Below, one piece after another: positions 1-62,424 of a stretch of DNA of 64,000 nt. This stretch comes from an uncultured Candidatus Berkelbacteria bacterium (GTDB taxonomy: Bacteria; Patescibacteriota; UBA1384; UBA12157; JAENIV01), in the NCBI GenBank assembly GCA_963698075.1, contig OY969116.1:83881-147880 (forward strand), in the 5' to 3' direction. Under the pieces are notes generated by a model. It made no database searches and was not told the DNA's origin. It saw only the letters and a list, made by a program, of their open reading frames with translations. The position numbers were made by a program, and so were the translations under genes. How positions within the stretch are numbered: the first letter of the stretch is position 1; the number at the start of each line of letters is the position of its first letter.

Positions 1-327
1 AGTTACAGCCGATTTTTTAATGTAAGACATAAAAGAAAAGGACCGTTATGGGAGGGAAGATTTAATAGTAAGTTAATTGAGAATGATGAACAGCTTCTAC
101 ATCTAACGCGATACATTCATCTAAATCCTACAACGGCTAACCTAGTGAGAAACCCAGAAGATTGGAAATACTCATCCTATTCGGAATATATCTCTTCTGC
201 TAAGATTGAAATTTGCCAGTATGAAGATCTTATGGAAATTATCCCCAAAACATATAGAAAATTTGTTAATGATCGAAAAGACTACCAAAGAGAATTAGCC
301 AAAATCAAAGCTCTAATGATAGATTGA
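1..327 (+). CDS. REP-associated / IS200-like tyrosine (Y1) transposase, C-terminal fragment (5' end lies outside window)
   Basis: Frame 1 from nt 1 gives SYSRFFNVRHKRKGPLWEGRFNSKLIENDEQLLHLTRYIHLNPTTANLVRNPEDWKYSSY...; this matches the COG1943/RayT-type C-terminus (GxLWxxRF, HxxYIHxNP, DWxYSS) as recalled. Confidence 0.6.
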   Translation, partial: SYSRFFNVRHKRKGPLWEGRFNSKLIENDEQLLHLTRYIHLNPTTANLVRNPEDWKYSSYSEYISSAKIEICQYEDLMEIIPKTYRKFVNDRKDYQRELAKIKALMID

Positions 328-339
328 ACCTGCTAATTT

Positions 340-362
340 ACACTTCGTAAGTGTAAATTATT
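340..362 (+). terminator. hairpin TACACTT-CGT-AAGTGTA followed by a T-rich run, after the transposase stop
   Basis: inverted repeat read directly in the sequence. Confidence 0.3.
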
Positions 363-637: not shown

Positions 638-881
638 TGGTGTCCTCCTTCTGGACAGGCCTGGGATTCAGCCGAATTAATCATAATAAATTTGACAAAA
701 TAAATCAATAATTTTATAATTATTATGCCGAAGAAAATAGGCCCCTCGACTACGCTCGGGGTGAACTAATAAGTCCTATCGAGGCAAAAAAGTAAATTGT
801 AAAAGTATTTAGTTATCTGTTATCAGTATAAAAATACCGATAACCAATAACTGATAACTATGTACCAATTACTATAATTTG

Positions 882-7992: not shown

Positions 7993-10812
7993 ATGGCAAT
8001 TTTAGAAACAATTGTTTTCCGAGGGTTAATGTATGCCATTTTGGTGGTAATACCGATTTTTTTAATTATTCTATATCTTAGGGCGCGGGCCAATAGAGCC
8101 AAGATGCAGTGGTTTGCTAATCTTAAATTTTTGACCATGAGAATCCTAGTTCCTAAAAATAATGAAAAGACCCCGCTGGCCGCCGAACAAATGTTTGCTG
8201 CTTTGCATGGGGTTTTCAGAAAAGAGAGTCAATTCCAAGATTATTTTTCCTTTGAAATTGCCTCGCGTGAAAAGTTTATTCAATTTTATGTTCATGTTCC
8301 TGAGCATCTTAAAGATTTTATTGAGGGCCAGATTTATTCGCAATATCCAACAGCGGAAATTACTCAAGTTGATGATTATACTTTAGAAGAACGAGAACAA
8401 ATTATCTCTGGCCAGTTCAAATTGGCTGGGACAGAATTAGGCTTGACTAATTTAGATGTTTATCCGATCAAAACCTTTCTTAATTTTGAAGTTGACCCCT
8501 TGGCGGGGATAACAGGCGTGCTTTCCAAACTTGAAAAGGGCGAAGAAATCTGGTTGCAAATTATTGTCAAACCAGTTTCCGACCTATGGCAGTCAAAGGG
8601 CATTGGTCATGTCAGATCGGTCAAGTCTGGGGCCACTAATCAGCAGGGGATATTCGTCGGAATTTTCGGCGCTTTTATAAGATTTTTAGGCGGTCTTCTT
8701 AGTGCCATTTTGACCGGGGTTACGCCGCCATCATCAAAAGAGGAAGCGCCCAAAGAAGAGGCTAAACTGCCAGGAACAGTTGAAGAAGGGCTTAAAGGTG
8801 TTGAAACTAAATCAACCAAACTCGGCTTTGAAACAAAAATCAGACTGCTGGCCTTGGCCACCGACGAAAACATCGCCAGATCAAAATTGGCCTCAACTGT
8901 GGCTGCCTTCAAACAATATAATTTGCTCAATTTGAATGGTTTCCAAGCCAGCAGTATCACCAACTCCTTGGCTTTTTACGATCAATATCGCTACCGGGCT
9001 TTTTTGGAGCCAGGTTATATTTTAAACATTGAAGAACTGGCCTCAATATTTCATTTGCCGAATGTTTCAGTGCAGACACCCAATATTGTTTGGGCGGGTT
9101 CCAAAAAAGGTGAACCCCCGGCTAATTTACCGATTGAAGAAAATGTCTTAAGTTCAGAACTAACTGTATTTGCCAAGACTGATTATCGACATCTGATGCA
9201 TAATTTCGGTATTAAATTATCGGATCGCCGTTATCACATGTATTCAATTGGCAAAACTGGCACTGGTAAAACAACCATGCTCGAAAACATGATTATTGAC
9301 GATATCCGCGAGGGTAGGGGAGTTGCCGTCGTTGACGCCCATGGGGACTTAATCAAAAAATTGCTTAACTATGTTCCCAGCGAAAGAATTAAAGACGTCG
9401 TTCTTTTTTCTCCGGCCGATCGTTTATATCCTCTCGGCTTTAATCCGCTCGAAAATGTTGATCCCGAGTTAAAAAATATTGTCGCCTCAGGCGTTGTCGG
9501 AATTTTTAAGAAAATATTTGGTGAATCCTGGGGACCACGGTTGGAATATATTTTGAGAAATACTATTTTGGCGCTCCTTGATTATCCCAATGCCACCATG
9601 CTCGGGATTACCAAAATTTTGGTTGACCAAGATTTTCGTAATCGTGTGATTGAAAAAATTCAGGATCCGGTGATTAAAGATTTTTTTGTTAATGAATACG
9701 AAAAATATGATCCGAAATTTCGGACTGAGGCCATCGCCCCGATTCAAAACAAAGTTGGCCAATTTTTATCATCATCAACCATCCGCAACATTGTTGGTCA
9801 GCCGAAATCAACCTTTAACATCGAAGAGATTATGAATACCGGCAAAATTATATTTATGGATTTATCAATTGGCGAAATTGGCGAAGACGCTTCAGCTCTT
9901 CTGGGCTCGATGATGATTACCAAAATTCAACTAGCAGCAATGCGACGGGCGACTATTCCCGAAGAAGAACGCAAAGATTTCTATTTATATGTTGACGAGT
10001 TCCAAAATTTTGCCACCGAATCTTTTGCGGTGATTTTATCTGAAGCTCGCAAATATCACCTGAATTTGATTATCACCCATCAATATATTGCTCAAGTTTC
10101 CGAAGAGGTCATGGCGGCTGTTTTTGGTAACTGTGGCACATTGGTTACTTTCCGTGTTGGCGCTCCTGACGCCGCCGCTTTGAAAAAAGAATATGAGCCG
10201 GTTTTTGAGGAAGTTGATTTAGTTAATTTAGATAATTATCATATCTACGTCAAAATGTCAATTGATGGCGTCACTTGTCCTGCTTTTTCGGCCGTCACTT
10301 TGCCTCCAGACAAGATGACTAATACCAATCGTGAAGCGATCCTTGCCCACTCACGCCAAAATTATTCCAAAAGGCGAGAATACGTTGAACAAAAAATGAC
10401 GGACCTAGCGGAAATGCCTAAAGTCGAACAAATCTTAACCAAGGCCGAGCGGGAGCGCATTCCCAAAATTCCGCCGAGAATAGGGGAGACCTATTATCGC
10501 GAAATCCAAACCCCGGGTGATGTTCGCTGGTATTTTGGTGGGGGAACAGTTGATCAGCCCCTGACCGAAGAGACGGTCCAAGAAAAATTAAAAAAACAAT
10601 TGGAAGAAACGCCAGATTGGATGAAGGAGCGACTCGCGGCTCTAGAAAAAAAAGATGATGGGGGAGAGGTGCCCGAAAAGATTGAAGATATTGAAGATTT
10701 AGAAAAAGATAAAGCAACGATGGTTTCGCATCTCGGTCCGTCGGAGAGCGGAAGTCGGATGTCAGATAGCAGTGTCCAACATCTCAAAGACGGTGAGACC
10801 ATTAAGTTGTAG
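7993..10812 (+). CDS. paralogous membrane-anchored VirB4/TraC-like P-loop ATPase, 939 aa
   Basis: Walker A YHMYSIGKTGTGKTT. Walker B YLYVDEFQNF. SEARKYHLNLIITHQY. The N-terminal domain shares motifs with the 4849-7347 protein (FxxLHGxxxxxxFSFEI, IxSQYPTAxI). Acidic C-terminal tail. Confidence 0.65.
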   Translation: MAILETIVFRGLMYAILVVIPIFLIILYLRARANRAKMQWFANLKFLTMRILVPKNNEKTPLAAEQMFAALHGVFRKESQFQDYFSFEIASREKFIQFYVHVPEHLKDFIEGQIYSQYPTAEITQVDDYTLEEREQIISGQFKLAGTELGLTNLDVYPIKTFLNFEVDPLAGITGVLSKLEKGEEIWLQIIVKPVSDLWQSKGIGHVRSVKSGATNQQGIFVGIFGAFIRFLGGLLSAILTGVTPPSSKEEAPKEEAKLPGTVEEGLKGVETKSTKLGFETKIRLLALATDENIARSKLASTVAAFKQYNLLNLNGFQASSITNSLAFYDQYRYRAFLEPGYILNIEELASIFHLPNVSVQTPNIVWAGSKKGEPPANLPIEENVLSSELTVFAKTDYRHLMHNFGIKLSDRRYHMYSIGKTGTGKTTMLENMIIDDIREGRGVAVVDAHGDLIKKLLNYVPSERIKDVVLFSPADRLYPLGFNPLENVDPELKNIVASGVVGIFKKIFGESWGPRLEYILRNTILALLDYPNATMLGITKILVDQDFRNRVIEKIQDPVIKDFFVNEYEKYDPKFRTEAIAPIQNKVGQFLSSSTIRNIVGQPKSTFNIEEIMNTGKIIFMDLSIGEIGEDASALLGSMMITKIQLAAMRRATIPEEERKDFYLYVDEFQNFATESFAVILSEARKYHLNLIITHQYIAQVSEEVMAAVFGNCGTLVTFRVGAPDAAALKKEYEPVFEEVDLVNLDNYHIYVKMSIDGVTCPAFSAVTLPPDKMTNTNREAILAHSRQNYSKRREYVEQKMTDLAEMPKVEQILTKAERERIPKIPPRIGETYYREIQTPGDVRWYFGGGTVDQPLTEETVQEKLKKQLEETPDWMKERLAALEKKDDGGEVPEKIEDIEDLEKDKATMVSHLGPSESGSRMSDSSVQHLKDGETIKL

Positions 10813-10862
10813 ATAGAATGTTAGTTTTAAGCGCCAGCGAGCTCATATCTTAAGAAGATTCA

Positions 10863-10887
10863 AACCTGTCCAACAGGTTATTTTTTT
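10863..10887 (+). terminator. AACCTGT-CCA-ACAGGTT-ATTTTTTT
   Basis: stem plus U7. Confidence 0.75.
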
Positions 10888-11381
10888 GTTACTCTGGTGG
10901 GGGAGAGGTCGAAAACAATTTTCAATTTGCAATTATCAATTATCATTTCAAAATGTGCCCTCATAATTCCACACCCGGCTAAAATGGGGGAAATGCAAAT
11001 TTGATGAATTTGAACTTCAATATTCTAAGACTTTTAAAAGCTCATAGATGGTCATTATAAAAGTGCTCCATAAGATAAACAACCTAATCAGTCGTAAAAC
11101 GGATATTGTGCGTCGCTTTGTAAATGCAGTCGCTCAATATTAGCCAGATTTTACAACGTATTTATAAATCTGGCTTAGTTTTATGCCATTGCAAAATTCC
11201 GTCCATTTATTTTTAGTCAGTGAGCTTGGGATTTCTTTAGACATTAGAAATTAGTCATTAGAAATTTTAAAACAATCCCCTATTTTACCAAGCCTATACT
11301 AAAAAAGTGACCAAATTGTCACGATTAAGCCCCAGGTACTATTTATATATTATAACCTGTTAATAATGTCTCTAAAAGCCC

Positions 11382-12296
11382 CTAGGACGCGACTTTTGCA
11401 GCCGCACGAGCTTTGCGTCGCGCGCTCCAACCCTGCCAACTAACTAACAAGGGCGAAGCGTTAAAAATTGATGAATAAGTGCCAATGGCGATGCCCACCA
11501 ACAATGCCAACATAAAATGTTTTAATGTTGCCCCGCCGAGCAAAAAAAGCGCCAGTAAAACCAACAAAACCGTAAACGAAGTATTCAAAGAGCGGTTTAA
11601 AGTTTGCAAAATACTATTATTAACATTAGTTTCAAAATCCAAAGAAGGGGATTTGCGTAGATTCTCGCGAATGCGATCAAAAACCACTATCGTATCGTGG
11701 ACTGAAAAACCCATAATTGTCAAAAGGGCAGTAATAAAAAGGGAATCGACTTCATAGCCGAAAAAATGTCCCAAAATCGCGAATGCCCCAACCACAAAAG
11801 CAAGGTCGTGAATTAAGGCTAAAACCGCACAAACGCCAAAGCGCCAGGAACTCGCCGGTTTAGGAACCTTGCGAAAAGCAATTGAGATATAAATAATAAT
11901 GGCGATTGAAGCCAAAATGACGGCGATGACGGCTTTTCGTTTCAAATCCGAGCTCACCGTCGGCCCCACCGTTTCTAGCCGGTTTTGTTTGTAGCCCTCC
12001 CCTACTTTGGCAAGCGCCTCGGTTAATTTATTTTGCGTTTCAGCATCTAAGACCGGCGTCCGAATGATAAAGTCATTCCCAGACGGTTGAACATTAACAT
12101 TTTTGATACCGTTACTGTTTATAACTTCATCAATTTTTGTTTTAGCAACACTATTACTATAGGAAATATCCAACAAGGTTCCGCCCTTAAAATCAAGCCC
12201 GGTTGGTATCCCCCAAAAAATTATTGCCAAAATTCCCGGCACAATTAAAATTAAAGAAATTAAATACCAAATTTTCCGTCGGCCAATAATGTTCAT
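11382..12296 (-). CDS. secF: protein translocase subunit SecF
   Basis: MNIIGRRKIWYLISLILIVPGILAIIFWGIPTGLDFKGG...; its ATG overlaps the secD stop as ATGA (12293-12296). Confidence 0.85.
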   Translation of the reverse strand: MNIIGRRKIWYLISLILIVPGILAIIFWGIPTGLDFKGGTLLDISYSNSVAKTKIDEVINSNGIKNVNVQPSGNDFIIRTPVLDAETQNKLTEALAKVGEGYKQNRLETVGPTVSSDLKRKAVIAVILASIAIIIYISIAFRKVPKPASSWRFGVCAVLALIHDLAFVVGAFAILGHFFGYEVDSLFITALLTIMGFSVHDTIVVFDRIRENLRKSPSLDFETNVNNSILQTLNRSLNTSFTVLLVLLALFLLGGATLKHFMLALLVGIAIGTYSSIFNASPLLVSWQGWSARRKARAAAKVAS

Positions 12297-22471: not shown

Positions 22472-23716
22472 CTAGCGCAGGAGGACCTCGGCCCCCTTGC
22501 CCTGCTGGATGAGGGGCAGATAGCCCTCGAGCTCCTTGGCCGTCTCATCCGAGCTGAGGTCAACCGTCTGACCGCGCTCAGCGGCGAGGTAGCTGGCCAT
22601 CACCAGCCGGGTAACCTCCCAGCCGTAGCGGAAGTCGAGGAGGCCGTGCTGGCCTTGGGAGAAACGAGCAACAGCATCTTGCCACTCGGCGACGTAGCCG
22701 TAGAGGTCAGCCTCGTTGGGCTGCATCACCAGCGCCCCGCGGCCGGCCTGGGCCTTCTCGAGCATCAACTCGGCACTCGTCACCGTTTCGGCGGCGGCAT
22801 CGCTGATGAAGAGGCCGGCTGGCGACTCGAGGGAGTTGACGGTGTAGGAGTAGCCTGGTCCCATCGCCTCCATCAGGAGCCGCAAGCCCGGGGCGTCGTA
22901 CATCCACGAGTCCGTGAACTGGGCGACGACGATCTGCCCGGTCTCGGGGTTGCGGAGGGTGATGAGGCCAGTGGCGTAGTCCTCGGCTGGTGTCTTGGCA
23001 TAGTCGATGCCGCGCTCCCTCAGTAGCTTCGCCCGCCAGGAGTCAGGCAGTCCCCACTTGAGGAGCATCGTTGCGGCGGAGACGGTCTGCGGGACCAGGA
23101 AGGTTGGCGGCTTGCCTGAGGGCGTCAGCATCCACCAGCCGACGGCGATAGAGTGACATCCCATGTCACAGAGCACACCACCACCCTGCCTGGTAGGATC
23201 CCAGAACCAGGCCTCGTGCGGCCCGCCGTGCTCCTCAGCCGAACGGGTCAGATGGACAGGGCCCATATGGCCTTCGACGGCTGCCAGGAGTGTCCTTGCT
23301 CGCCGGACCGCGGGCATGTGGATCTGGTTCTCGAAATAGGCTTCCAGCAGTCCCGCCAACGAGGCCAGAGCTACCATCTCATTGGCTTCGGCGACATTGC
23401 GCGCCAGCGGCTTCTCGCAGATGACTGCCTTGACCGGTGAGCCCACCTGCTTCTTGGCGTCGGCGATCGCTTGCATCACCTCGAGCCGGGCGTAGTTCGG
23501 GCAGAAGATGGCGACGACATCAACGTGCTCGGCCATCTCCCCGACGCTGGGATAGATCTGGCACTCGCCGAGACCCAGAGAGCGGACACTTGAGGCGAAA
23601 TCCTCACTGCCGGCGAGGGCGTGAACCCCGGCGATCTCGACGCCGCGGACGTACCTGAGGGCCTCACGGTGGAAGCCCGCGACGAATCCTGCCCCGACGA
23701 ACCCGACTTTCAGCAT
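22472..23716 (-). CDS. Gfo/Idh/MocA-family NAD(P)-dependent oxidoreductase, strikingly GC-rich (~65%)
   Basis: KVGFVGAGFVAGFH Rossmann motif; codon usage and GC content unlike its neighbours. Confidence 0.7.
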   Translation of the reverse strand: MLKVGFVGAGFVAGFHREALRYVRGVEIAGVHALAGSEDFASSVRSLGLGECQIYPSVGEMAEHVDVVAIFCPNYARLEVMQAIADAKKQVGSPVKAVICEKPLARNVAEANEMVALASLAGLLEAYFENQIHMPAVRRARTLLAAVEGHMGPVHLTRSAEEHGGPHEAWFWDPTRQGGGVLCDMGCHSIAVGWWMLTPSGKPPTFLVPQTVSAATMLLKWGLPDSWRAKLLRERGIDYAKTPAEDYATGLITLRNPETGQIVVAQFTDSWMYDAPGLRLLMEAMGPGYSYTVNSLESPAGLFISDAAAETVTSAELMLEKAQAGRGALVMQPNEADLYGYVAEWQDAVARFSQGQHGLLDFRYGWEVTRLVMASYLAAERGQTVDLSSDETAKELEGYLPLIQQGKGAEVLLR

Positions 23717-23799
23717 CTTCTTCGCACCTTTCCTATCAAAAGTAAGGGACATTTAGTCTTGTCCCTCCAATGAGATTATATAACACCTCTCGAGAACAA

Positions 23800-30475: not shown

Positions 30476-30700
30476 TTAAAAAATCCTTAGCTTCGGTCAT
30501 TCATAGATTGCTAAGGAATTGCCTTTCGACCGAAGGACTTAATACAAAAATTTAAAGTTTTCTGGCTTGTCCTGAGCGAACGAAGTGAGTCGAAGGGCTT
30601 ATTCCTCGACTTTGCTCGGAATAAATCTTTCGTTTTGCTCAAGATTTACAGTAGCGTGACTGCCCCGGATTTCCACCGGGATTACCCTTAAATTTAGGTT
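30476..30700 (-). promoter_or_regulatory. cobalamin (B12) riboswitch-like leader with a terminator attenuator, 5' of the DUF4430 gene
   Basis: The minus-strand RNA GGGUAAUCCCGGUGGAAAUCCGGGGCAGUCACGCUACUGUAA (plus coordinates 30648-30687) matches the cobalamin aptamer core (GGUG.GAA.UCC...GCAG...CGCUACUGU). A partial B12-box AAGCCAGAA lies at 30568-30579. The terminator CCTTAGC...GCTAAGG plus U6 ends 9 nt before the RBS. Confidence 0.55.
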
Positions 30701-30716
30701 GAATTATTAAAGTGAA

Positions 30717-31121
30717 TTATTGTAGCTTCTCGAATCGCCAGTCGATTTTGTCGTTATTTTTAGTCTGGTACTGATCAGAACTAACCGAAGCCAGCTCGTT
30801 ATTGACATAAAACATCCAGTAGCTGTCATTGGTATTGGCCGTACCATCGATTGAGGTGACAAAGACACCCATAGAGGAATCCTCTGCTTTGACATCGTGG
30901 CTGGCTTTCAAAATATCCAAGGCAGTTTTGCCCTCTTGACCATCATAAGCAAGAGTCTTTTCGACTACCGGCTGAAATTGATTGGCAATGCCCGAGACTG
31001 TTTTGTTCACCTGTTTTTTGGAAACATAATTTCCGAGCAGACTGCCGCCAATAATCAAAATTGCCCCCAAAATGATAATGGCAATAAGATTCAACAGTCC
31101 CCATGAGTTCTTCTCAGACAT
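30717..31121 (-). CDS. DUF4430-like small membrane-anchored protein (134 aa)
   Basis: GKTALDILKASHDVKAEDSSMGVFVTSIDGTANTNDSYWMFYVNNELASVSSDQYQTKNNDKIDWRF. Confidence 0.6.
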   Translation of the reverse strand: MSEKNSWGLLNLIAIIILGAILIIGGSLLGNYVSKKQVNKTVSGIANQFQPVVEKTLAYDGQEGKTALDILKASHDVKAEDSSMGVFVTSIDGTANTNDSYWMFYVNNELASVSSDQYQTKNNDKIDWRFEKLQ

Positions 31122-38499: not shown

Positions 38500-38652
38500 T
38501 TAGTGAGTCAAATACCCTCAAAAGTGGCTATCGCAGGCCGAAAAGCAAGGTTTCTGAGCGTAGCGAAGAATTTTTGGCCGAGATCGCAGGCACCGATTGC
38601 GCGCTGGAGCAATCGTAGTGCCGGCATCTTTTGACGGGTATTGGCGAGCGAA
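38500..38652 (-). repeat. ~150-nt structured MITE/REP-like repeat, copy C (inverted relative to copies A and B)
   Basis: reverse complement is ~85-90% identical to 59645-59780 and 62128-62275 (CGTCAAAAGATGCCGGCACTACGATTGCTCCAGCGCGCAATCGGTGCCTGCGATCTCGGCCAAAAA...CTTTTGAGG). Confidence 0.5.
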
Positions 38653-42952: not shown

Positions 42953-43906
42953 TCAGGCCGGCTCATCAGGTTCGTCACTTGTCTCCTCTCCGAAGAGCGA
43001 AACAGGCTTACCGGCTTCGGCGATCTCGCCTTGCTTTAACGTAAGCTGGGCTTGTAGATCGCCCAGCTTACTAGCCGCCGTTCGGACACGGGCTTCAGCG
43101 GCTTCGAGCTCGCCTCGGGCGCTCTCGATTTGGGCTTCCAGCCGTCGTCCATCTTCCTCGAGCTTTCTCAGGCGGGTGTAAGCCTGGTTCTGATATTGAG
43201 AAGCGGCGAGCTCTAGGAGAATTTCAGTAGGGGCATAGCGCTTCTCATCCTGCGAGTCTGGCATCAACAACCCTCTTGCTACCAGCCTTGGTACGATAAA
43301 GCGGAGAGTGTTGGCGTGACTAACGTTTCCACTCCTCACACGCCGACTCGCTGCCTGTCTGATCATCTCAAGGGTGAAGCACTCCTCTCCCTCTGTCTTC
43401 ATATCCTCATAGAGTTGGAGGGCGATCACTCTTCTGCCGCCGAAGCCCGTCAGGTCGTCAGCGAGTTCGTTCCATTGCTCAACCCAAGCTTGATGTTGCT
43501 GGCGTCTGTTCTTTGATCTCGCTGCTTGGGCCTCCTCTTCGGCATACCGCTCCTTATGACGCTCCATCCAAGCAACCAGTTCTGGCTTGGCCGATCGGAG
43601 GATGCTTTCGGCGATCGCGACGGATGGGCAAAGGAGGAAGCACTTCCAGCGGTAGAGATTACCTTGAGGCTTTGTCCGGAGTTCAAGAGCCACCGGGTTA
43701 GACTCATTGAAGCAGAAGGCCTCTACCTCGGGAGTGTAGCTTGATCCCTTCATCCGTCGGGCTTCAACGAATAGGAGGTATTCATGCCTCTGGTCTGGCT
43801 GGGGAAAGATCTGCTGGAGCCAGAGGGCCACGGCGTGTTCGAAGCTTGGCTCATCGACTGTGTAGCTATGCTGGCCAAGCAGCTTAGCCTTCACGAGATG
43901 CGGCAT
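42953..43906 (-). CDS. GC-rich (~57%) hypothetical protein with a C-terminal coiled coil
   Basis: 317-aa ORF; flanked by ~60-nt direct repeats that share an exact 16-mer GGCTCTTTTTGGTATG (42904-42919 and 44048-44063). Confidence 0.5.
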   Translation of the reverse strand: MPHLVKAKLLGQHSYTVDEPSFEHAVALWLQQIFPQPDQRHEYLLFVEARRMKGSSYTPEVEAFCFNESNPVALELRTKPQGNLYRWKCFLLCPSVAIAESILRSAKPELVAWMERHKERYAEEEAQAARSKNRRQQHQAWVEQWNELADDLTGFGGRRVIALQLYEDMKTEGEECFTLEMIRQAASRRVRSGNVSHANTLRFIVPRLVARGLLMPDSQDEKRYAPTEILLELAASQYQNQAYTRLRKLEEDGRRLEAQIESARGELEAAEARVRTAASKLGDLQAQLTLKQGEIAEAGKPVSLFGEETSDEPDEPA

Positions 43907-51605: not shown

Positions 51606-52766
51606 CTACATCAATTTAATCGAATTAATGAGGTTATTATACCAAGCTCCACCATCGCCCATTTCCTCGGCTGGAGCAGTGTAAGTAACAATCATAATTT
51701 TTTCACCGCGAGAAAGGTAAGTCGCTATCGCCGGTTGATTGTTGGTCAATTCCTGCTGATAAGCTGTGTGACTATCAACAATAATTTCCTTAGCAGCATT
51801 TTTTTCATTGGTGGCGACGGCATTGGCCTCGACCCAAGATTTTAAAGTTTTTCCATTGGCGTCTTGAAAATTAATTTCGATTCGAAAACCGGTCAGGGCG
51901 CCGGCGAGAGATTCATTATTGGCGGCAAAGACAATTTCCTCGGCTGTTGGTGAGGTTGTTGAAGCCAACCAACCGTTGGGATATTTTAAGGAAAAATTAT
52001 AGAGTGTTGAGGAGTATGTTGACCAAAGATTAACATCCAAACTCGGACTTTCCTCAGCGGCTCCAGTCGCTGAACTGGGACTGGGGGAGACCTTAGTTTC
52101 TGAAGCCAAGGTTTTCAACCGGTCCCAATAGCGAAAGCCGAAAAAACCGCCAGAAGCACCGATAATGAGGGCCAAGATGGCCAGGATAATAATCGTTGTC
52201 GCCGGAGAACCAGGCCTCGTTTTAATCGGCGCTCCGCCAGCCGGTGGGGGTGGCTCACCCGGTCCAGCCGGTTGGCTGACAAGTGTCGGCGACACGGGAA
52301 TTTTGGGAGCTTCCGTGGTCGGCTGTTCGTTGGTGCGGCTGCGGTCATAGGTTTTAATCGGAATATCGGTCGTCGAGGCTTCAATTTTTCCCTCATCGCT
52401 CGGCGGACTTTTCGGAGCCGGCGGCGGTGAAGTCGGTGGCGGAACATTCTCTTTTTCTTTTTTTTGGCCGGGAATCTCGATTTTGGGGCTAGAGACGGAA
52501 ATTTTCGCGGTCTCGTCAGGCTTTTTCTCTTCCAACTCTACTCCAATTTTAGGATTGCCGACGCCAATTTTATCCTCGGCAGGTGTTGCCCCCGTGGTTG
52601 GTGGAGAAGGAGCAGGGGGAGCAGGAGTCGGTGTCGAACCTGGGGTCGGCGAAGGCGTTACTGGCGGGACGGCCTGGGGCGAGGGTGTTGGCGGTGGGGG
52701 TGGTTGATTTAATTTAACTTGATCTTTTTTGTCATCTGTCGATTGGGTTGGAGAACCTATATTCAT
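51606..52766 (-). CDS. Pro-rich N-terminus, single TM, extracellular C-terminal domain; hypothetical
   Basis: PPPPTPSP... then a TM helix IIILAILALIIGASGGFFGF. Confidence 0.5.
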   Translation of the reverse strand: MNIGSPTQSTDDKKDQVKLNQPPPPPTPSPQAVPPVTPSPTPGSTPTPAPPAPSPPTTGATPAEDKIGVGNPKIGVELEEKKPDETAKISVSSPKIEIPGQKKEKENVPPPTSPPPAPKSPPSDEGKIEASTTDIPIKTYDRSRTNEQPTTEAPKIPVSPTLVSQPAGPGEPPPPAGGAPIKTRPGSPATTIIILAILALIIGASGGFFGFRYWDRLKTLASETKVSPSPSSATGAAEESPSLDVNLWSTYSSTLYNFSLKYPNGWLASTTSPTAEEIVFAANNESLAGALTGFRIEINFQDANGKTLKSWVEANAVATNEKNAAKEIIVDSHTAYQQELTNNQPAIATYLSRGEKIMIVTYTAPAEEMGDGGAWYNNLINSIKLM

Positions 52767-52853
52767 AAAACCTCCTCCTACCTATTATACTCCTTTTACA
52801 AAAAATCAACAAATCTGGGCTTGCCCCGTTAGATAGCTTCACATCTAATGGAG

Positions 52854-52882
52854 CTTGACAAAAAAGATGTGTTATTCTATAA
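52854..52882 (+). promoter_or_regulatory. perfect sigma70 promoter TTGACA-17-TATAAT
   Basis: hexamers at 52854-52859 and 52877-52882. Confidence 0.55.
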
Positions 52883-52888
52883 TAAAGG

Positions 52889-53283
52889 TTGACTTCAGAG
52901 TTATTTTTGGACCAGTACGCTGGTAGGGGCACCCGTCCCATCACCCGATCCCCCTCTCGGGACGCCCTGCCAGTAGTGCTGGTCCACTGTTTGGGCAACG
53001 CCTAGGACGTTGCCCTACTCGGGAGGCCCAGGTCGACACCCCCCTCGCCCCGGCTTGTGCCTCCCCCGCCGATAACGGTGACAGGCACCGTCTTCGACCG
53101 TTGCGCGCTTCACCGCAGGCCCTCTGCGCAACACGGTCGATCAGCGCCCGCGAGCGAGACCTGGTGCTCCGCTCGCACCTTTCACCCGCGGCGCCCAGCG
53201 CCGCGAGCACCTCGCGACAGGTTCATGACGCCCTCTCGCGAGCCGCCCTCGGGTCCATCTGGACCCGAGGGCGCTTTTTGTAT
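52889..53283 (+). ncRNA. unclassified GC-rich (~68%) structured RNA candidate, ~390 nt, with a strong intrinsic terminator
   Basis: terminator GCCCTCGGGTCC-ATCT-GGACCCGAGGGC plus T5 (53245-53279); many internal GC hairpins; ORFs are Arg/Ala-rich junk. Confidence 0.35.
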
Positions 53284-53301
53284 TCGAGGACTTTCAAAAT
53301 C

Positions 53302-53805
53302 TTATTTAGTTCCAATCACAATGACGATATCGTATTGAGTTTCTTGGCTGAAATTTTGGGTTTTAGCGTTATAGGATTTTAGAACTAAAGCTAGATCATT
53401 GGCATAATTTTGGTAAGCCGGCTGATAGTAAATAATAGTTTGATCATATAAATTTAAGGCATTTTCTGTGACCGTGACATTAAAACCGGCGGTTTTTAAA
53501 GCGTCGCGGACTTTTTGGCTTTCCTCGACGCGGCCGGTGCCGTTTAAGAGTTTAATCGTCACGTTGGCTTGAGTTTTGTTAGCCGGGCTGGCACTAGTGG
53601 TACTCGGGCTCGCCGGCGGACTAGTTTTGTTGACGCTTTCATTAGAAAGCGGGATTTTACTAGCGCCTAAAAAAACGATAAAAAAAGCTGCCAGCACCGC
53701 TAAAAAGAAGAACCAAGAAACGTTCGCTCGACGTTCCTTTTTTTCCTTAGGTTTTAGCTTACGAGTGTGTTTTCTCGGTGGTAAAATGTCCCAAATTCTT
53801 GCCAT
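53302..53805 (-). CDS. LytR_C (LytR/CpsA/Psr C-terminal domain) protein with N-terminal TM
   Basis: VTIKLLNGTGRVEESQKVRDALKTAGFNVTV...; preceded by a GC-rich, structured ~110-nt leader (53806-53925). Confidence 0.6.
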   Translation of the reverse strand: MARIWDILPPRKHTRKLKPKEKKERRANVSWFFFLAVLAAFFIVFLGASKIPLSNESVNKTSPPASPSTTSASPANKTQANVTIKLLNGTGRVEESQKVRDALKTAGFNVTVTENALNLYDQTIIYYQPAYQNYANDLALVLKSYNAKTQNFSQETQYDIVIVIGTK

Positions 53806-53977
53806 GGTTGACTTTTGTTTCAATATCGACCTCGGGGTATCCCTCGCTCTCGGGGACCCACTCCAGCCCTGTCTTGAATTCGCCTTCGGCGATTCGGGAC
53901 GCCCCCACTTCGCTCGGGACACACCCTCGGTCTCTCTATTTTCCAGTCCTACTCACTAAATCACTACTCACTATCTT

Positions 53978-54907
53978 TTATGCCCAATTAATTTGCTCAA
54001 GGTAAGTCCGATGCGGTTTGAACTTAAAATGGAAACGGCTTGGATCTTGGCCAATAACTTTGATATTTTCTTGGATTTTTTGGGCACCCAGAAGATTTAA
54101 GTAGCCGATTTGTAACGGATTAAAACCTATTAATTCGGTCGTCAAAACGTCGGCCGCCAGGGCGTTGAGCGAGGCGACGGCAAAGTGGGTTTCGAGCATC
54201 TGCCCCCCAACTGGACCATCACCCTCCATCCCCTGCCAGCCGTCAATGACGGCCAAGTGCGGCCGAGTGTATTTGGCTAATTCAACCAAGGAGCGATTAA
54301 TCGCCGGCGCGCCCTGATGGATGAGATTTTTATCATCACCTAAAATTGATCCGACGGCAAAATTTTTGATTGACAAAGTGACAATGACTGAATCATGGGT
54401 TTTGGGGGTTGAAACTGAAATTCGAAACGGGGCTTCGGCCACGGTATTGGCGATCTTTACCCGAACTGGTTTTAAGTTTTGATCAAAAACATCAACATAA
54501 ATCGCATCTGCAAAATTTAGGTCCAAAAATTCTAAATTGGGAAACTCGCTTTTGAGCCGGTTGTAGCCATAATTTTGGAAAGCCTCAAAAGTATTTTCCG
54601 CTGAGCCCTCGGCTAAAACGATTTTTCCTTCCCAAAGTGGGGTTAAAAATTCTAAAACCGCCTTGAGCGCTTCCGGATGAGTGGCGCATTTTTTGACTGT
54701 AGCAACCACGCAGCTCGGTTTAATTAAAATATAATCATAATCGGGATTAAGTTGGTCGATCGCGCCATTAAGATCTTCTTTGATCAAATCAAGGGCCTTA
54801 TAAACCGTTTGGTAACGGTCTTTCTCGCTTGAAAGCGCGACCTCATTGGTTTCTTTGAGTTTGAGTTTGGTTAATTCAGCATGGCTAATAATCATGGTTT
54901 TAAGCAA
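53978..54907 (-). CDS. DUF362-domain protein
   Basis: pattern recall only. Confidence 0.5.
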   Translation of the reverse strand: MLKTMIISHAELTKLKLKETNEVALSSEKDRYQTVYKALDLIKEDLNGAIDQLNPDYDYILIKPSCVVATVKKCATHPEALKAVLEFLTPLWEGKIVLAEGSAENTFEAFQNYGYNRLKSEFPNLEFLDLNFADAIYVDVFDQNLKPVRVKIANTVAEAPFRISVSTPKTHDSVIVTLSIKNFAVGSILGDDKNLIHQGAPAINRSLVELAKYTRPHLAVIDGWQGMEGDGPVGGQMLETHFAVASLNALAADVLTTELIGFNPLQIGYLNLLGAQKIQENIKVIGQDPSRFHFKFKPHRTYLEQINWA

Positions 54908-55404
54908 AACCTCCAGGGTAACTTAGCCGACCTTCCGGCATACTCGACTCCAATCCGAGTTGACTGCCTAATATCTTTCGGCAAAATTATAACTCCCCTA
55001 TCTTCAATATAAAGGTCGCTTCTGGTTAAATCAAGGCCGTTGTCTTTTCGGGTAATCCCAAAATATCGACAAAGCTTTCCCGGCCCATTGGAGTAAGCGT
55101 TATCAATGGCCCGAATTAAGATTGCGGAGGGAAAACTGCTTTTTTCAGTGGTGATATTAAGGCAGTGGTAAATGCCATAAATGAGATAGACGTAAGCAAA
55201 ACCACCTTGTTTGAACATGACTTGGTTACGACGGGTCATTCCCCGGGCCGCATGGCAGGCCTGATCATCTTGACCAATATAGGCCTCAACTTCAATGATT
55301 TTGCCCGCCCTTTTGCCAAAGACTAAATATTTTCCGAGTAAGTTGCGGGCGACCTTAAGCGTGGGCCGGATGTAAAATGAGCGTTTATATCGTATTCGTT
55401 TCAT
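54892..55404 (-). CDS. DNA-3-methyladenine glycosylase (AAG/Mpg family)
   Basis: GKIIEVEAYIGQDDQACHAARGMTRRNQVMF...GFAYVYLIYG. Confidence 0.7.
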   Translation of the reverse strand: MKRIRYKRSFYIRPTLKVARNLLGKYLVFGKRAGKIIEVEAYIGQDDQACHAARGMTRRNQVMFKQGGFAYVYLIYGIYHCLNITTEKSSFPSAILIRAIDNAYSNGPGKLCRYFGITRKDNGLDLTRSDLYIEDRGVIILPKDIRQSTRIGVEYAGRSAKLPWRFCLKP

Positions 55405-55439
55405 AGAAATATCGTAACACAAAAACCGAGTGTTAGGCC

Positions 55440-55468
55440 TTGACATTTTATATAAGATGTGATATAAT
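55440..55468 (+). promoter_or_regulatory. perfect sigma70 promoter TTGACA-17-TATAAT
   Basis: hexamers at 55440-55445 and 55463-55468. Confidence 0.55.
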
Positions 55469-55474
55469 AGCAAG

Positions 55475-55925
55475 CGTAAAGTGGAAGGCCAGCCCTGTTT
55501 AAGGCGAGAAAGGGGGCGACGATGTGCGGCCTTTCTACTAAGGGACAAGTTGTCCGTCCCATCTGAGGGGAACGCGGTGAGCCCGGCCCAATCGTCTGGC
55601 GGCTCCCACGAAAGTGAGCCGTATCCGATCTGGGACCAGTAATGTGGTTCATCGGACCCTCAGACCAAGGGACACAACCTGCGTTTGGACGCGGAGGGCC
55701 GCCGGAAGGCGTGTCGTCCCAACAGGTCGCCGATCATGGCGACCGATGTCCTGCCACGGTGAACGCGGGGCTGAAATCCGCTGGGCTAAGGCCCGAGCGG
55801 ATTACCGCCGCACTATCACCCCCTGGTTAGGACTAGAAGTCTTCCAGCCCACGGCTGGAAGGACAACAGAATAGACGTCATTGACAGCCTCGCTGGTATT
55901 CCAGCGGGGCTGTTCTAATATTACA
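55475..55925 (+). ncRNA. unclassified GC-rich structured RNA candidate, ~450 nt, at the edge of a GC-rich island
   Basis: 12-bp terminator-like hairpin CAGCCTCGCTGG-TATTC-CCAGCGGGGCTG (55885-55913) plus a T-rich run; no credible ORF. Confidence 0.3.
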
Positions 55926-55934
55926 AAACAGGCC

Positions 55935-56204
55935 TCAACCGGAATGGTCGAGGCCAGGGGTTTTGTTCGCTCGGATGGCTCGGCTGAGGGTTTGGGGGAA
56001 GGAAGAATCGGGGGTGTCGTCGTAGCTGGCGAGGATGGCGAGCTGATTCGGGGTTAAGTGCCGTAGATCGGTGGTGATACAATCAATCCCTTGGGTTTGC
56101 GCTCGATTGACGACAGTTGCGAGATGCCGGACTTGGTCGGCATCGAGACGATTATGGTTGCGATGACGGCGCACAATATCCTCCCGCCCCGAAATGATAT
56201 ACAA
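55935..56204 (-). CDS. hypothetical protein (89 aa), GC-rich island
   Basis: ORF only. Confidence 0.3.
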   Translation of the reverse strand: MYIISGREDIVRRHRNHNRLDADQVRHLATVVNRAQTQGIDCITTDLRHLTPNQLAILASYDDTPDSSFPQTLSRAIRANKTPGLDHSG

Positions 56205-56283
56205 GTATTATATAAAAACTGTGGGTAAAATACAACCCCGTTAGATGTGGATCTATCTAACGGGGCAGTCATTCGATTCGCAA

Positions 56284-56427
56284 CTAGCGGGATCGGTAGC
56301 GCTCGTCAAGGATTGAAAGGGCGGTTTGCTCAATATCGCCTGAGGCTTCCAAACGGTTGAGGTTGGCTCTAAGATCATCTGGATCCATGATAATCTGGCT
56401 TGGCGTGGCGGCGAGCCTCGCTTTCAT
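56284..56427 (-). CDS. small protein (47 aa from the internal Met) coupled by an ATGA overlap to the upstream small ORF
   Basis: ATGA overlap at 56424-56427; followed on the minus strand by terminator 56234-56263. Confidence 0.3.
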   Translation of the reverse strand: MKARLAATPSQIIMDPDDLRANLNRLEASGDIEQTALSILDERYRSR

Positions 56428-56675
56428 TTCCTCGAGCCGCTCGGCAATCGTCGGCGTCGTCTTCGCGGGCATCGTGGTTTCCTCCTGTCTTTCTTTAATC
56501 TTTCCGCCTCCGTCTTTAGGAGTTCCTCGACCAACTCACAGAGGTGTGGAAACTCCATACCAGGCAGTTTAGCCACCACCTCTTCCGGAAGTTCTCCGAG
56601 CAGTTCGAGCGAAATGATGAGCTCAAACTGTCGGGCGAAAGCTTGGGCTTCGACAAGAATTTCGTTTCGTCTCAT
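56424..56675 (-). CDS. small helical protein (83 aa) with an Arg-rich C-terminus
   Basis: ORF; forms a two-gene module with 56284-56427. Confidence 0.3.
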   Translation of the reverse strand: MRRNEILVEAQAFARQFELIISLELLGELPEEVVAKLPGMEFPHLCELVEELLKTEAERLKKDRRKPRCPRRRRRRLPSGSRK

Positions 56676-57384
56676 CTCGCTCTCCTCCTCGGGTTTTCCA
56701 AAAAACCTTCGCGCGGAGCGAAGGTTTCCTCGATGATCTACATTTTAGCAAAAAGAAAACTACCTCCGGCTCGCGCCGCTTCTAGCATGGGCAGTCTTCT
56801 TTTGCATGTTGCGTAGATTCATCTTGATTTAAGCGTACTATATTATAAATCTTTTTGTCAAGTGGAACCCCGCTCGAGCTGATGCTTGAGCGGGGGATGG
56901 GGATGTATTCGTCGGTCTAGGTGCATCGAAGTAGTTCTCTGACTAATCGGACGAATTCATGGTCGTCGGTTATGTTCATCAGATCGGCGGCCTTATTGTC
57001 GCTGACCGAATTGGCGATGGGGAAAAGATGATGCGAGGCGGCGCGGTCAAGGAAGTCAGCCATAACATCAGAAACAGTCTCTTTCCTCTTTCGGATAGCA
57101 GGATTGCTTTTCTTACACACCGGATTCCTCCTTAGGGTTAGTCAGTTTGATTATAGAGGAAGTCTAGCTTAAAGCAAATCGCCTTGACTTTTCGGCTAGA
57201 ATATGATACACTAATAAAGTTTCGAACCTTAACCACTTCTATTTCTCCTTGGAGGGAATCTGACTATCTATGAACTCTTGAGGTAGTCAGTTTCCCTCTT
57301 AGGGAGGGCTTCCGTGTCCATAGTGGCACGAGAAGAATTCCGACCGCACCACGAGAAAACTCGTGGCGGAAAAGGAAATGCAGG

Positions 57385-57948
57385 ATGTCAGCAACGATGC
57401 GGGTCTATGTGCGGCCAGCCCACCTTCCTCGCGAAGAATGGCCAAAGGCCGACAAGGGCAAGCCGTTCGAGCTAGATGGACTTACGTTCGAGCGCGATGA
57501 GAAGGGTTTACACTATAGCTGGAAGCCCTTCCTTCCGGTCCGGAGAACCCCGTTCATCAACCCGGATGAGGCCCTCTGGTATGCCACTGTTCATGATCGA
57601 TGGACGCCATTAGTCCATCGCGCCACCGGTCTGTATGGCTCGCTAGAACAGGGAGCCGAAGCGGTCCTCGATCAGGAAGGGCCAGAAGGATCTTCGATGT
57701 ACGTCCTCGAAGTTTGGGGGAGGAACCCCGATCGTGTCGTAGATCTGTGGCAAGACATCCGGACCGGCAAAGCCGTACCACGAGTGCCGTTCGGAGGACC
57801 AGCTGACATATCGACGATCGAGCAGCTGATCACCGAGGGCCTCCAGACGGATGGTGGGCATCACAAGCAGTGGTATCTCGAACAGATCGCAGTCGCCCTC
57901 GGCATCAACCTGGATGGCATTCAGCGGGAACCCGGAATCCCCGCCTAA
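57385..57948 (+). CDS. GC-rich hypothetical protein (187 aa)
   Basis: ORF with an upstream GGAAATG context; unknown family. Confidence 0.4.
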   Translation: MSATMRVYVRPAHLPREEWPKADKGKPFELDGLTFERDEKGLHYSWKPFLPVRRTPFINPDEALWYATVHDRWTPLVHRATGLYGSLEQGAEAVLDQEGPEGSSMYVLEVWGRNPDRVVDLWQDIRTGKAVPRVPFGGPADISTIEQLITEGLQTDGGHHKQWYLEQIAVALGINLDGIQREPGIPA

Positions 57949-58098
57949 CTGTTGAGGAACCTAGGGGCAGGCCGCATAAAGGGCGACCTGCCCCTCCCAC
58001 TCCCATCTTCGAGATTTATTCTGGAAGGTGGAAGCGGGAGATTAACAACCGAAAAACACGCCCAGCAACCCGGAAGGGTATGGGTATGGAGAGCAGAA

Positions 58099-58410
58099 AT
58101 GAGTCAGAAGGTGGCTTTAGTGTTGATCCTCGTGATCGTGTCTTGCGTCATCGTGACGGTTGCGGGGTCGGCAACTCATCCGACACCGACATCAGAACCT
58201 GGGACGGTTTATCACCAACTGGTGCCCGTCCCACCATCCACCCCGCCGCAGCTCGAGCAAACCTGTGAATTTGCGACGTGGGACACGCTCAAGTTGATTC
58301 TGGCCAAGAAAACGAGCGAAGGATGGGAGCTGACAGCCGCGATGGTTGACAACCAGTATGCGATGGTTGACAACCAGTATTATGTCCTTTTCTTCAAGCG
58401 CTATCGCTAG
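58099..58410 (+). CDS. small membrane protein carrying a perfect 21-bp in-frame tandem duplication (AMVDNQY x2)
   Basis: ATG after GGAGAG; the duplication GCGATGGTTGACAACCAGTAT occurs at 58339-58359 and 58360-58380. Confidence 0.4.
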   Translation: MSQKVALVLILVIVSCVIVTVAGSATHPTPTSEPGTVYHQLVPVPPSTPPQLEQTCEFATWDTLKLILAKKTSEGWELTAAMVDNQYAMVDNQYYVLFFKRYR

Positions 58411-58540
58411 CCGGGCCGAAAGGCCCAAGACTTGCCCGGACGACATCTTGTCCGGGCCCCACTCCCATCTTCGAGAGAAATCCGCCAACCGGCGGACTGG
58501 AAGGTGGAAGCGGGATGAAACCAAACAGGAGGTCACTGAA

Positions 58541-58699
58541 GTGACACTTTTGATCTTGATTACGCTGGCTTGCCTTGTCTACACGATCATCGCCCGGATC
58601 AGGGACCACAGTTGGAATACCGGGCTACTTATCTGCTCGGGATTCTGGGTGTTGGTGACAATCTCGTTCCTGATTTCTGGCACAGGACATCACAAGTGA
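58541..58699 (+). CDS. small membrane protein (52 aa), GTG start after AGGAGG
   Basis: shares a conserved 5' leader motif with 58099-58410. Confidence 0.35.
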   Translation: MTLLILITLACLVYTIIARIRDHSWNTGLLICSGFWVLVTISFLISGTGHHK

Positions 58700-59271
58700 A
58701 TTCATGCCCAGCAAGCCGTGAGGCTATGGGGAAGGGAAACGAAATATGGGTTGGAGGGATGAGATGCCACTAGTCCATGAGGTTGGAGATCAAGTCAGGA
58801 TGTGCGAATCGTGGCTCGTTACTATCTACGGGGAAGGCCCATTCAGGGTGGTGGCGGTCGAAGACGTACCGGACTACTCTCTTGCCGGGGTGGGCCACCC
58901 ACAATGGGTCGACGTCCGACTTCCCGACGGTAGAACTGCGCGGTTTTCAGGAAAGCTCCTTTGTCCTGTAACTCCGCTCCCGCGGAAATCGCCCAGACGG
59001 CTTCGACGCGAAGATCATCTTCGACGTCGGGGACGAGCATGACCGGGCCGCAAGGCCCACAAGACAGCCGTCGTGGCAATCGCTACGGCGGCTTCGTCAT
59101 ATTAACCCCAAATTCCACTCTGTAAAAAAGAGTTTATATCTAATACTCTGAAAGTGCTGGAGCACTCTCAGAGTATATTCAAGTCCTATTTTGGATTTTA
59201 TTTTTGAGGAATCGTTCTCTTTAAACAACAAATCATAGGATCGCAAAGAGTATGACTTATCAATTTCTATT

Positions 59272-59625: not shown

Positions 59626-59644
59626 AATTCCTCCTTAGAGTCGG

Positions 59645-59780
59645 CTCGCTTATACCCGTCAAAAGATGCCGGCACTACGATTGCTCCAGCGCGCAATCGG
59701 TGCCTGCGCTCTCGGCCAAAAACCCGCCGCTTCGCTCTGGGACCGTGCTTTTTGGCCTGCGAGAGCCACTTTTGAGGGCA
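59645..59780 (+). repeat. ~150-nt structured MITE/REP-like repeat, copy A
   Basis: terminal inverted repeat CGTCAAAAG / CTTTTGAGG; internal hairpins CGATTGC-N8-GCAATCG and GGCCAAAAA...TTTTTGGCC. Confidence 0.5.
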
Positions 59781-59920
59781 TTAAGCTCGCCTCCTTTTAA
59801 TAGTATCGGTTCTAAAGAATCTATTTTAAAAGTTGAAGCCCAAATTAAATTACCTAAACTTTCTAATAACTCCACGCATTTACCCCGTTTGATACGAAGT
59901 TATCTAACGGGGCCCTCCAT

Positions 59921-60517: not shown

Positions 60518-60681
60518 GTTTCTCTCCTAGATATCGCCTCGGGTCATGGCGCTCGCTTTCAGCCACCCTAGCCAACCTATTCGTCTACTTCCGATTCGCC
60601 TCGCGCCTGGCTGCGGCGAAATCGGAGCGTAGACTCAACCGGCATTTCGCTCGGCCACTCCCCTTGGCTCAGATAATAATA

Positions 60682-62081: not shown

Positions 62082-62127
62082 TTCTATCTAATGATAAGGG
62101 ATTTTTAAGAAGAGGTCAAGAGGGGTC

Positions 62128-62275
62128 GCTCGCCAGTATCCGTCAAAAGATGCCGGCACTACGATTGCTCCAGCGCGCAATCGGTGCCTGCGATCTCGGC
62201 CAAAAATCCTCGGACTACCTCGGAGCCATGCTTTTTGGCCTGCGATAGCCACTTTTGAGGATACACGGCTCGCTT
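62128..62275 (+). repeat. ~150-nt structured MITE/REP-like repeat, copy B
   Basis: about 90% identical to copy A. Confidence 0.5.
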
Positions 62276-62424
62276 TATACAAGAGCCGAGGGGAGCCCCT
62301 GAACGAATGGCGGTCTCGACTGCGTTCATTATCGATGAGCCAGGCGCGAATTGATAAGGAAGCAGTCGAGTAGGTCGGTTAGGGAGCCTGAATGTGAACG
62401 GGGCGACCCGAGGCGAAATATTAA

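Follow-up and report, generated by a model that had tools for sequence, protein, structure and literature searches.

A 64,000-nucleotide stretch of an uncultured Candidatus Berkelbacteria genome (here called the window) carries three copies of a structured intergenic repeat and begins with the C-terminal part of a gene for a RayT-like transposase. Among named organisms, Candidatus Berkelbacteria (Patescibacteria/CPR) supplied the closest relatives of the YqeY protein encoded in the window. The locus raises the question of what kind of element the repeat is and what may move it. The earlier note on this DNA, made from the letters alone, had proposed a lineage-specific REP- or MITE-like element, possibly mobilized by RayT, whose fold could also act as an RNA element. 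Copy boundaries were set by alignment, a search for the end motifs, and a covariance model, which gave the following features (positions are those of the window).

59643-59790, plus strand: element copy 1, in the lexA-holl spacer (covariance model, 186.7 bits)
59643-59665, plus strand: left arm of copy 1
59671-59704, plus strand: hairpin 1 of copy 1
59708-59766, plus strand: hairpin 2 of copy 1, with a variable tip at 59723-59746
59769-59790, plus strand: right arm of copy 1
62127-62275, plus strand: element copy 2, in the relA-hisS spacer (covariance model, 171.3 bits)
38504-38650, minus strand: element copy 3, in the rpsU-yqeY spacer (covariance model, 174.3 bits)

All three copies exist where they had been reported. 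For copy 1, the location given before (59645-59780) holds, but that range is a few bases short of the one set by alignment and the covariance model. As had also been recognized, the copies lie in intergenic gaps of minus-strand operons: the neighbors are rpsU and yqeY, lexA and a gene for a 117–amino acid Endonuc_Holl protein (holl), and relA and hisS. Two copies are in the plus and one in the minus orientation, in a stretch where all genes run in the same direction. Copy 3 starts ~5 nt past the rpsU stop codon and ends ~14 nt ahead of the yqeY start codon. The −35 box (TTGACC) of a promoter-like site of hisS lies ~10 nt from copy 2, which is directly adjoined by one copy of a second repeat family (B2).

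All three window copies share a core of 44 nt, GATGCCGGCACTACGATTGCTCCAGCGCGCAATCGGTGCCTGCG, with 100% identity; no match to it with three or fewer mismatches was obtained in 100 dinucleotide-preserving shuffles. Over the whole element, pairwise identity among these copies is 82 to 87%. The ends of the ~147-nt element are ~23-nt imperfect inverted repeats that pair with each other and read 5′-(T)CGCTCGCCAGTATCCGTCAAAAG ... CTTTTGAGGATACATGGCTCGCTT-3′. The end motifs that bound it, CGCTCGCCAGTATCC ... GGATACATGGCTCGC, are present only in element copies, both in the window and in all loci fetched from relatives. The other internal features listed in the earlier note were found as well, namely, a CGATTGC-N8-GCAATCG hairpin and a GGCCAAAAA-variable-TTTTTGGCC hairpin, one copy having TTTTCGGCC. 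Element length ranges from 131 to 168 nt over the copies. The only ORFs across the element are spurious ones that share the C-terminal end ...FLAE(I/S)AGTDCALEQS, as had been pointed out before; annotation should mask these calls.

Every copy folds in the same way: the inverted ends form an outer stem that closes a junction with two hairpins, yielding a three-way junction. Calculated RNA folding energies range from −46 to −66 kcal/mol, with z scores mostly between −2 and −4.4 (−62.5 kcal/mol and z −4.4 for copy 1). With DNA parameters, both strands fold alike, with z scores of −2.6 to −5.0 (−4.1 for copy 1). In a covariance-model alignment of 12 copies, standard pairs occupy 93.4% of cells; since this alignment was fitted to the model, the paired fraction is inflated, but the gap to shuffled and slid controls is still large. 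Compensatory double changes were present in 21 of the 52 base pairs, compared to 8.2 ± 1.9 in shuffles and 3 to 7 with slid partners, and a separate MAFFT/RNAalifold run gave 10 pairs with double changes. Compensatory evolution is seen in all stems, including 7 of the 19 pairs of the outer stem. The three-way-junction fold that had been suggested from the sequence is thus backed by covariation.

In hairpin 1, a conserved CCAGCG loop is carried by four different stems.

Type 1: GGCAC..CGATTGC / GCAATCG..GTGCC
Type 2: GGCTG..CGATTTC / GAAATCG..CAGCC
Type 3: GCCCC..CAATTTCC / GGAAATCG..GGGGC
Type 4: GACC..CGATTTTC / GAAAATCG..GGTC

Hairpin 2 has the form GGCC-A5 ... T5-GGCC. Its tip is fast-evolving yet always paired (CCC/GGG, TCC/GGA, TTC/GAA, and GTCGCC/GGCGAC) and is followed by a conserved ACCRTGC. 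Extra hairpins of 9 to 19 nt occur at one fixed point, the junction of the outer stem and hairpin 1, in the related loci L005/L016, L002, and L009. Overall, the internal hairpins are better conserved than the element ends.

A guide-like role of the variable tips was considered and rejected, as none of the three tips has another match in the window at three or fewer mismatches. For the tip of copy 2, a 12-nt exact complement is located at 5856-5867; it forms the core of a 31-nt stretch (5837-5867, inside a large plus-strand ORF) that is 77% complementary to 62211-62241. We judged this to be a chance match because the other tips have no partner, the related L004 tip differs at this place, and 12-mer matches are expected in 64 kb in an all-against-all comparison.

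To follow the family beyond the window, an exact-pattern scan for hairpin 1 was run, and it yielded six metagenome contigs (L002 to L007). The only match among 185,579 representative genomes, in Bradyrhizobium (L001), lies inside a coding region and was dismissed as chance; viral contigs gave no match. A covariance model was built from eight copies and then run on loci fetched via neighboring proteins, which revealed additional, partly diverged copies in loci of relatives. In total, 12 distinct copies were found in eight contig sets (the window and related metagenome contigs): three in the window, two each in L002 and L009, and one each in L003, L004 (the same as in L007), L016 (the same as in L005), L006, and L019 (the same as in L020). 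Copy density is 3 per 64 kb of the 929-kb contig in the window and 0 to 2 per 11- to 20-kb locus in relatives; several related loci of this size hold no copy detectable with the covariance model. Variable-tip sub-lineages recur at different loci of different genomes, the tip of copy 2, for instance, grouping with that of L004 and the tip of copy 3 with that of L003.

Rfam holds no family that matches the element at either gathering or permissive thresholds. Phage and plasmid collections gave no element match, a protein search with the six translated frames gave none either, and a literature search did not find small intergenic mobile repeats described for Candidate Phyla Radiation (CPR) bacteria. 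The copies in related Berkelbacteria contigs, together with the covariation, bear out the earlier notion of a lineage-specific, structured, intergenic repeat family. The family, which is real and had not been annotated before, is made up of small, structured mobile elements in intergenic regions of Berkelbacteria.

The window also contains a second GC-rich structured repeat family, B, whose ~140-nt copies at 60531-60672 (plus strand) and 62283-62419 (minus strand) are 71% identical. In L013, a 48-nt spacer holds just the first ~25 nt of this family (TCGCCTCGGGTCGCCCCGTTCACATT; 1915-1950), and the same ~25 nt are found inside a duplicated left end of the 147-nt element in L006 (592-612).

Insertion polymorphism was assessed by comparing orthologous spacers, and both filled and empty states were found at four of them: lexA-holl, relA-hisS, rpsU-yqeY, and rplL-tgt. 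At lexA-holl, the element is present in the window, L005/L016, and L006 and absent from L009 to L011, L012, and L017, where the spacer is 52 to 61 nt. The window LexA is 93 to 97% identical to LexA of filled and empty relatives alike, L006 being an outgroup at 86%. To explain this pattern, multiple gains, a loss, or recombination must be assumed. The relA-hisS spacer is filled in the window only and is empty in L009, L010, and L016 (34 to 81 nt); the conserved hisS promoter-like sequence can be aligned right up to the element boundary. The rpsU-yqeY spacer is filled in the window, while the empty spacers of L015, L013, and L019 measure 1, 47, and 25 nt, respectively. Conversely, the window lacks the element at rplL-tgt, where L004/L007 have it. 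L009 is empty at both lexA-holl and relA-hisS yet carries copies at two other sites. The earlier note had named lack of insertion polymorphism as an argument against a mobile element; since four loci are polymorphic among related Berkelbacteria genomes, that argument falls away.

The orthologous copies of the window and L005 at lexA-holl are 98 to 100% identical, save for the additional hairpin of 19 nt that L005 has. Identity is 97% in the 60 nt of spacer next to the element, while lexA and holl are 78 to 92% identical and the synonymous third positions of holl only 72%. Such conservation could mean host-level selection, with the element not purely selfish. More simply, a short tract with the element in it may have been exchanged recently between lineages by homologous recombination. 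We consider this reading simpler since the plain spacer next to the element is equally conserved; the exchanged tract would also account for the patchy distribution at lexA-holl.

To see which strand folds, G-T and A-C mismatches were compared. In the stems of a single-strand transcript, G-U would be much better tolerated than A-C. Among the non–Watson-Crick cells in stems, 10 are G-T and 13 are A-C, i.e., the two are equally frequent. With respect to the genes on either side, the sense orientation is seen for six copies (copy 3, L004, both copies of L002, L003, and L019) and the antisense orientation for three independent ones (the lexA site, the relA site, and L009 889-1044); one copy is ambiguous. 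The presence of both orientations and the equal frequencies of G-T and A-C argue against a strand-specific RNA. They fit a constraint on complementarity as such, acting on single-stranded or cruciform DNA or on RNA from either strand. Of the possible RNA element proposed earlier, the fold stands, while an orientation-specific RNA role is weakened, also by the absence of the element from close relatives.

Mobility is indicated by presence and absence at orthologous sites, by copies at non-homologous sites in several genomes, and by the occurrence of both orientations. Taken together, the repeat is probably a mobile DNA element of ~147 bp that is non-autonomous, has no ORF, is restricted to a subgroup within Candidatus Berkelbacteria, and inserts into very short spacers of housekeeping operons. 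Because complementarity is kept equally for both strands, we infer that a folded single-stranded (or cruciform) DNA form would be what a trans-acting enzyme recognizes. Such recognition may be akin to that of HUH/Y1-type or other structure-dependent systems, as opposed to a DDE transposase acting on duplex inverted repeats. Homologous recombination of the flanks would also move the element between related genomes. After insertion, it would be transcribed along with the operon and form a stable RNA junction, and effects on mRNA would be a by-product and not the cause of its existence.

In its behavior, the element most closely resembles ERIC elements and bacterial MITEs. The ERIC (or IRU) elements of enterobacteria are ~127-bp imperfect palindromes that are not known to have a dedicated transposase. 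They share with the Berkelbacteria element a similar size, a location in transcribed intergenic spacers in either orientation, and a long imperfect hairpin fold. Insertions at fixed internal positions give longer ERIC variants, much as the extra hairpins at the hairpin 1 junction do in L005/L016, L002, and L009. The Berkelbacteria element differs in that it is of unrelated sequence and from an unrelated phylum (CPR), forms a three-way junction whereas ERIC forms a single hairpin, and is clearly polymorphic in presence and absence between close relatives.

As this family shows, CPR genomes, which are ~1 Mb in size and nearly devoid of spacer DNA, still tolerate GC-rich insertions of 150 bp, even within a few bases of a stop codon, a ribosome-binding site, or a promoter. 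The set of filled and empty sites offers clean material for studies of how the genomes of uncultured Berkelbacteria populations have recently changed and recombined. With its covariation on both strands and its conserved loops, the element is also a sensible substrate on which to test the many RayT-like/HUH enzymes of CPR bacteria that are still unstudied.

Two more specific possibilities, which we regard as unlikely, were also weighed. The element may be the substrate of an undescribed structure-dependent system of CPR bacteria, with an enzyme that reads the folded three-way junction together with the CCAGCG and ACCRTGC loops and not duplex ends or a simple REP hairpin. Alternatively, it may be a mobile yet host-selected module, which is suggested by an orthologous copy being far better conserved than the synonymous sites of neighboring genes.

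A classical MITE would descend from a DDE-transposase IS by internal deletion, have ends recognized as duplex inverted repeats, and leave a short target duplication. The ~23-bp imperfect inverted ends, small size, lack of an ORF, and insertion polymorphism all fit, and in these respects the MITE-like half of the earlier label is apt. A target duplication was sought at the filled and empty sites, and the candidate at lexA-holl is as follows.

59630-59636, plus strand: CCTCCTT, the Shine-Dalgarno sequence of holl on the minus strand
59790-59796, plus strand: second CCTCCTT, at the right arm of copy 1, whose last base it shares as its own first base

Empty lexA-holl sites have the corresponding AAGGAGG once, while the window and L005/L016 have one on each side of the element. 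Similarly, CTCTTG is present twice in the filled relA-hisS site and once in the empty one. At rplL-tgt, however, AT alone is duplicated, and the distances from the repeats to the conserved element ends differ: 6 and 0 nt at lexA-holl and 4 and 7 nt at relA-hisS. In a permutation test on 10 independent copies, in which the longest common substrings of own flanks and of cross-paired flanks were compared, own-flank repeats were not significantly longer (p ~0.1), because the flanks are AT-rich. Hence, although 6- to 7-bp flank repeats do exist at two sites, we regard a regular, fixed target duplication as unproven. The arms also change by compensation, which is not expected if a transposase reads each arm as duplex DNA, and the greater conservation of internal hairpins than of ends is likewise at odds with this model. 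Neither a parent IS nor a transposase with the same ends as the element turned up in the window and ~250 kb of related loci. We therefore consider a classical MITE distinctly unlikely.

Correia elements of Neisseria and RUP of Streptococcus pneumoniae have a fixed TA duplication, and RUP has a recognizable parent IS. Like the Berkelbacteria element, they are 100 to 150 bp long, non-coding, intergenic, co-transcribed, and variable among strains, and they have terminal inverted repeats. The difference is that, for the Berkelbacteria element, neither a regular duplication nor a parent IS was found and the arms covary.

We find it quite improbable that the element is of the REP/REPIN type and owes its mobility to the Y1 transposases of the RayT-like kind that these genomes encode. 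In favor of this view, the window has a RayT-like gene, relatives have such genes near element sites (L009 11997-12665 and L021 6317-6964), and no other transposase-like genes were seen in the window or in the loci with tabulated genes. The features at the start of the window are as follows.

1-327, plus strand: C-terminal 108 codons of a RayT-like (COG1943 / Y1) protein, NCBIfam REP_Tyr_transpos
335-359, plus strand: hairpin AATTTACACTTCGTAAGTGTAAATT, 8 nt past the RayT-like stop codon and unrelated to the 147-nt element

The RayT-type C-terminal part had thus been correctly recognized, though its REP_Tyr_transpos score of 45.9 bits is below the cut-off of 80, as is that of the complete L009 homologue (65.7 bits). 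The L009 protein matches PDB 4ER8 (TnpA-REP) with an E value of 3e-4. REPs and REPINs are palindromic repeats outside genes that are believed to be processed in the form of folded single-stranded DNA, with stems that are kept (PMC3733652, PMC3337134, and PMC8266576), and the Berkelbacteria element resembles them in having stems kept by compensatory change, no regular target duplication, and RayT-like genes in the same genomes. However, by the published definition (PMC3733652), REPs are palindromes of 20 to 40 nt with GTAG or CGTC as an unpaired terminal tag, two such units in inverted arrangement make up a REPIN, and a RAYT gene is bordered by REPs of its own. The Berkelbacteria element departs from each of these defining features: it is a 147-nt three-way junction with an outer stem and two unlike hairpins, its arms are not palindromes, and GTAG and CGTC occur in it only internally, never as terminal tags.

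Each RayT-like gene examined has its own small hairpin instead. In L021, a TCACTTGACAAGTGTAA hairpin lies on both sides of the gene (~6255-6275 and ~7000-7020), and in L009, a CCATATCAAACCCCTGGGGTT hairpin does so. No copy of the 147-nt element lies beside a RayT-like gene, whether in the 3′ flank of the window gene or in both flanks of the L009 and L021 genes. Hairpins of the TTACACTT-N3-AAGTGTAA type, which flank RayT-like genes and of which one is solitary in L013 (9330-9354), as a REP would be, are the probable true REP-like partners of RayT genes; the hairpin at 335-359 is likely the cognate REP-like sequence of the window gene. The proposed mobilization by RayT and the REP half of the earlier label are thus not borne out. 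RayT could act on the element in trans, but the data contain no pointer to this.

According to the last of the main alternatives, the element is a functional structured RNA or DNA module under host selection (e.g., for mRNA stabilization, processing, or termination) that spreads mainly by recombination. Its very stable fold, the loop motifs CCAGCG and ACCRTGC kept across subfamilies with altered stems, and the location of every copy in a transcribed spacer between co-directional genes speak for such a role, as does the near identity of the window and L005 copies described above. On the other hand, the copies are oriented 6:3 relative to transcription, G-T does not exceed A-C among mismatches, the neighbor genes are different at every site, equally close relatives lack the element at the same sites, no terminator-like call falls inside copies, and no Rfam family matches. 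This alternative appears very improbable to us.

An IS200/IS605-type mechanism would predict a conserved target tetranucleotide before the left end. No such tetranucleotide was found: left flanks end in GGGT, GTAT, ATAT, AAAT, AGAT, TTAA, TTAG, GGAC, etc. A PATE (a non-autonomous IS200/IS605 derivative) is structure-dependent and non-coding like the Berkelbacteria element and makes no target duplication (HUH/Y1 context in PMC6006769), but its subterminal hairpins without end-to-end pairing, fixed 4- to 5-nt target 5′ of the insertion, and strand bias are not seen here, and the varied left flanks and the 6:3 orientation speak against an IS200/IS605-derived PATE.

Several other features of the window and its relatives were recorded. 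Next to the lexA-holl site, at 59850-59913, a palindrome (GCCCCGTTAGATAACTTCGTATCAAACGGGGT, minus strand) lies between the lexA stop codon and a degenerate second lexA end, which comprises the last seven codons and the stop (GVIRKFR, 59850-59875). L005, L009, and L012 have a single lexA end and no palindrome there. The 59850-59913 segment looks like an insertion or recombination that carried its own replacement gene end. Palindromes of a CCCCGTTAGAT-N6-8-ATCTAACGGGG family are found in the window at 52823-52854, 56235-56266, and 59882-59913 and are conserved in relatives (L006 ~14637; L012 ~4868 and 5586-5614; L013 ~5128). They are usually located immediately upstream of a TTGACA/TTGTAT −35-like box, and because of this placement, they look like the operator of a regulator and not like a terminator.

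Between rplL and tgt, at 2290-2680, the window has a perfect TTGACA-17-TATAAT promoter-like site followed by ~340 nt of 56% GC, with a GC-rich hairpin at the end, an Arg-rich ORF of 79 to 104 codons, and no Rfam match; in L004, the 147-nt element takes up the orthologous position. GC-rich islands (53 to 65% GC, compared to ~42% for the genome) at 370-660, 22472-23752, 42953-43906, and 52000-59100 hold, among others, an ORF for a 426–amino acid oxidoreductase-like protein along with several small ORFs that lack obvious relatives. In L005 and L006, holl is followed by comparable GC-rich stretches. The islands are likely foreign DNA.

Two matches to known RNA families were noted in the window: a cobalamin riboswitch at 30537-30731 (minus strand), with 33.1 bits, above the Rfam gathering score, and an L10-leader-like match upstream of rplJ at 710-820 (plus strand), whose 35.3 bits are below the gathering score of 44. 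At ~10800-11400, the genes switch from the plus to the minus strand, and the cumulative GC skew has its maximum near 10 to 11 kb; the coincidence of the two suggests a replication terminus or an origin-type boundary at this place.
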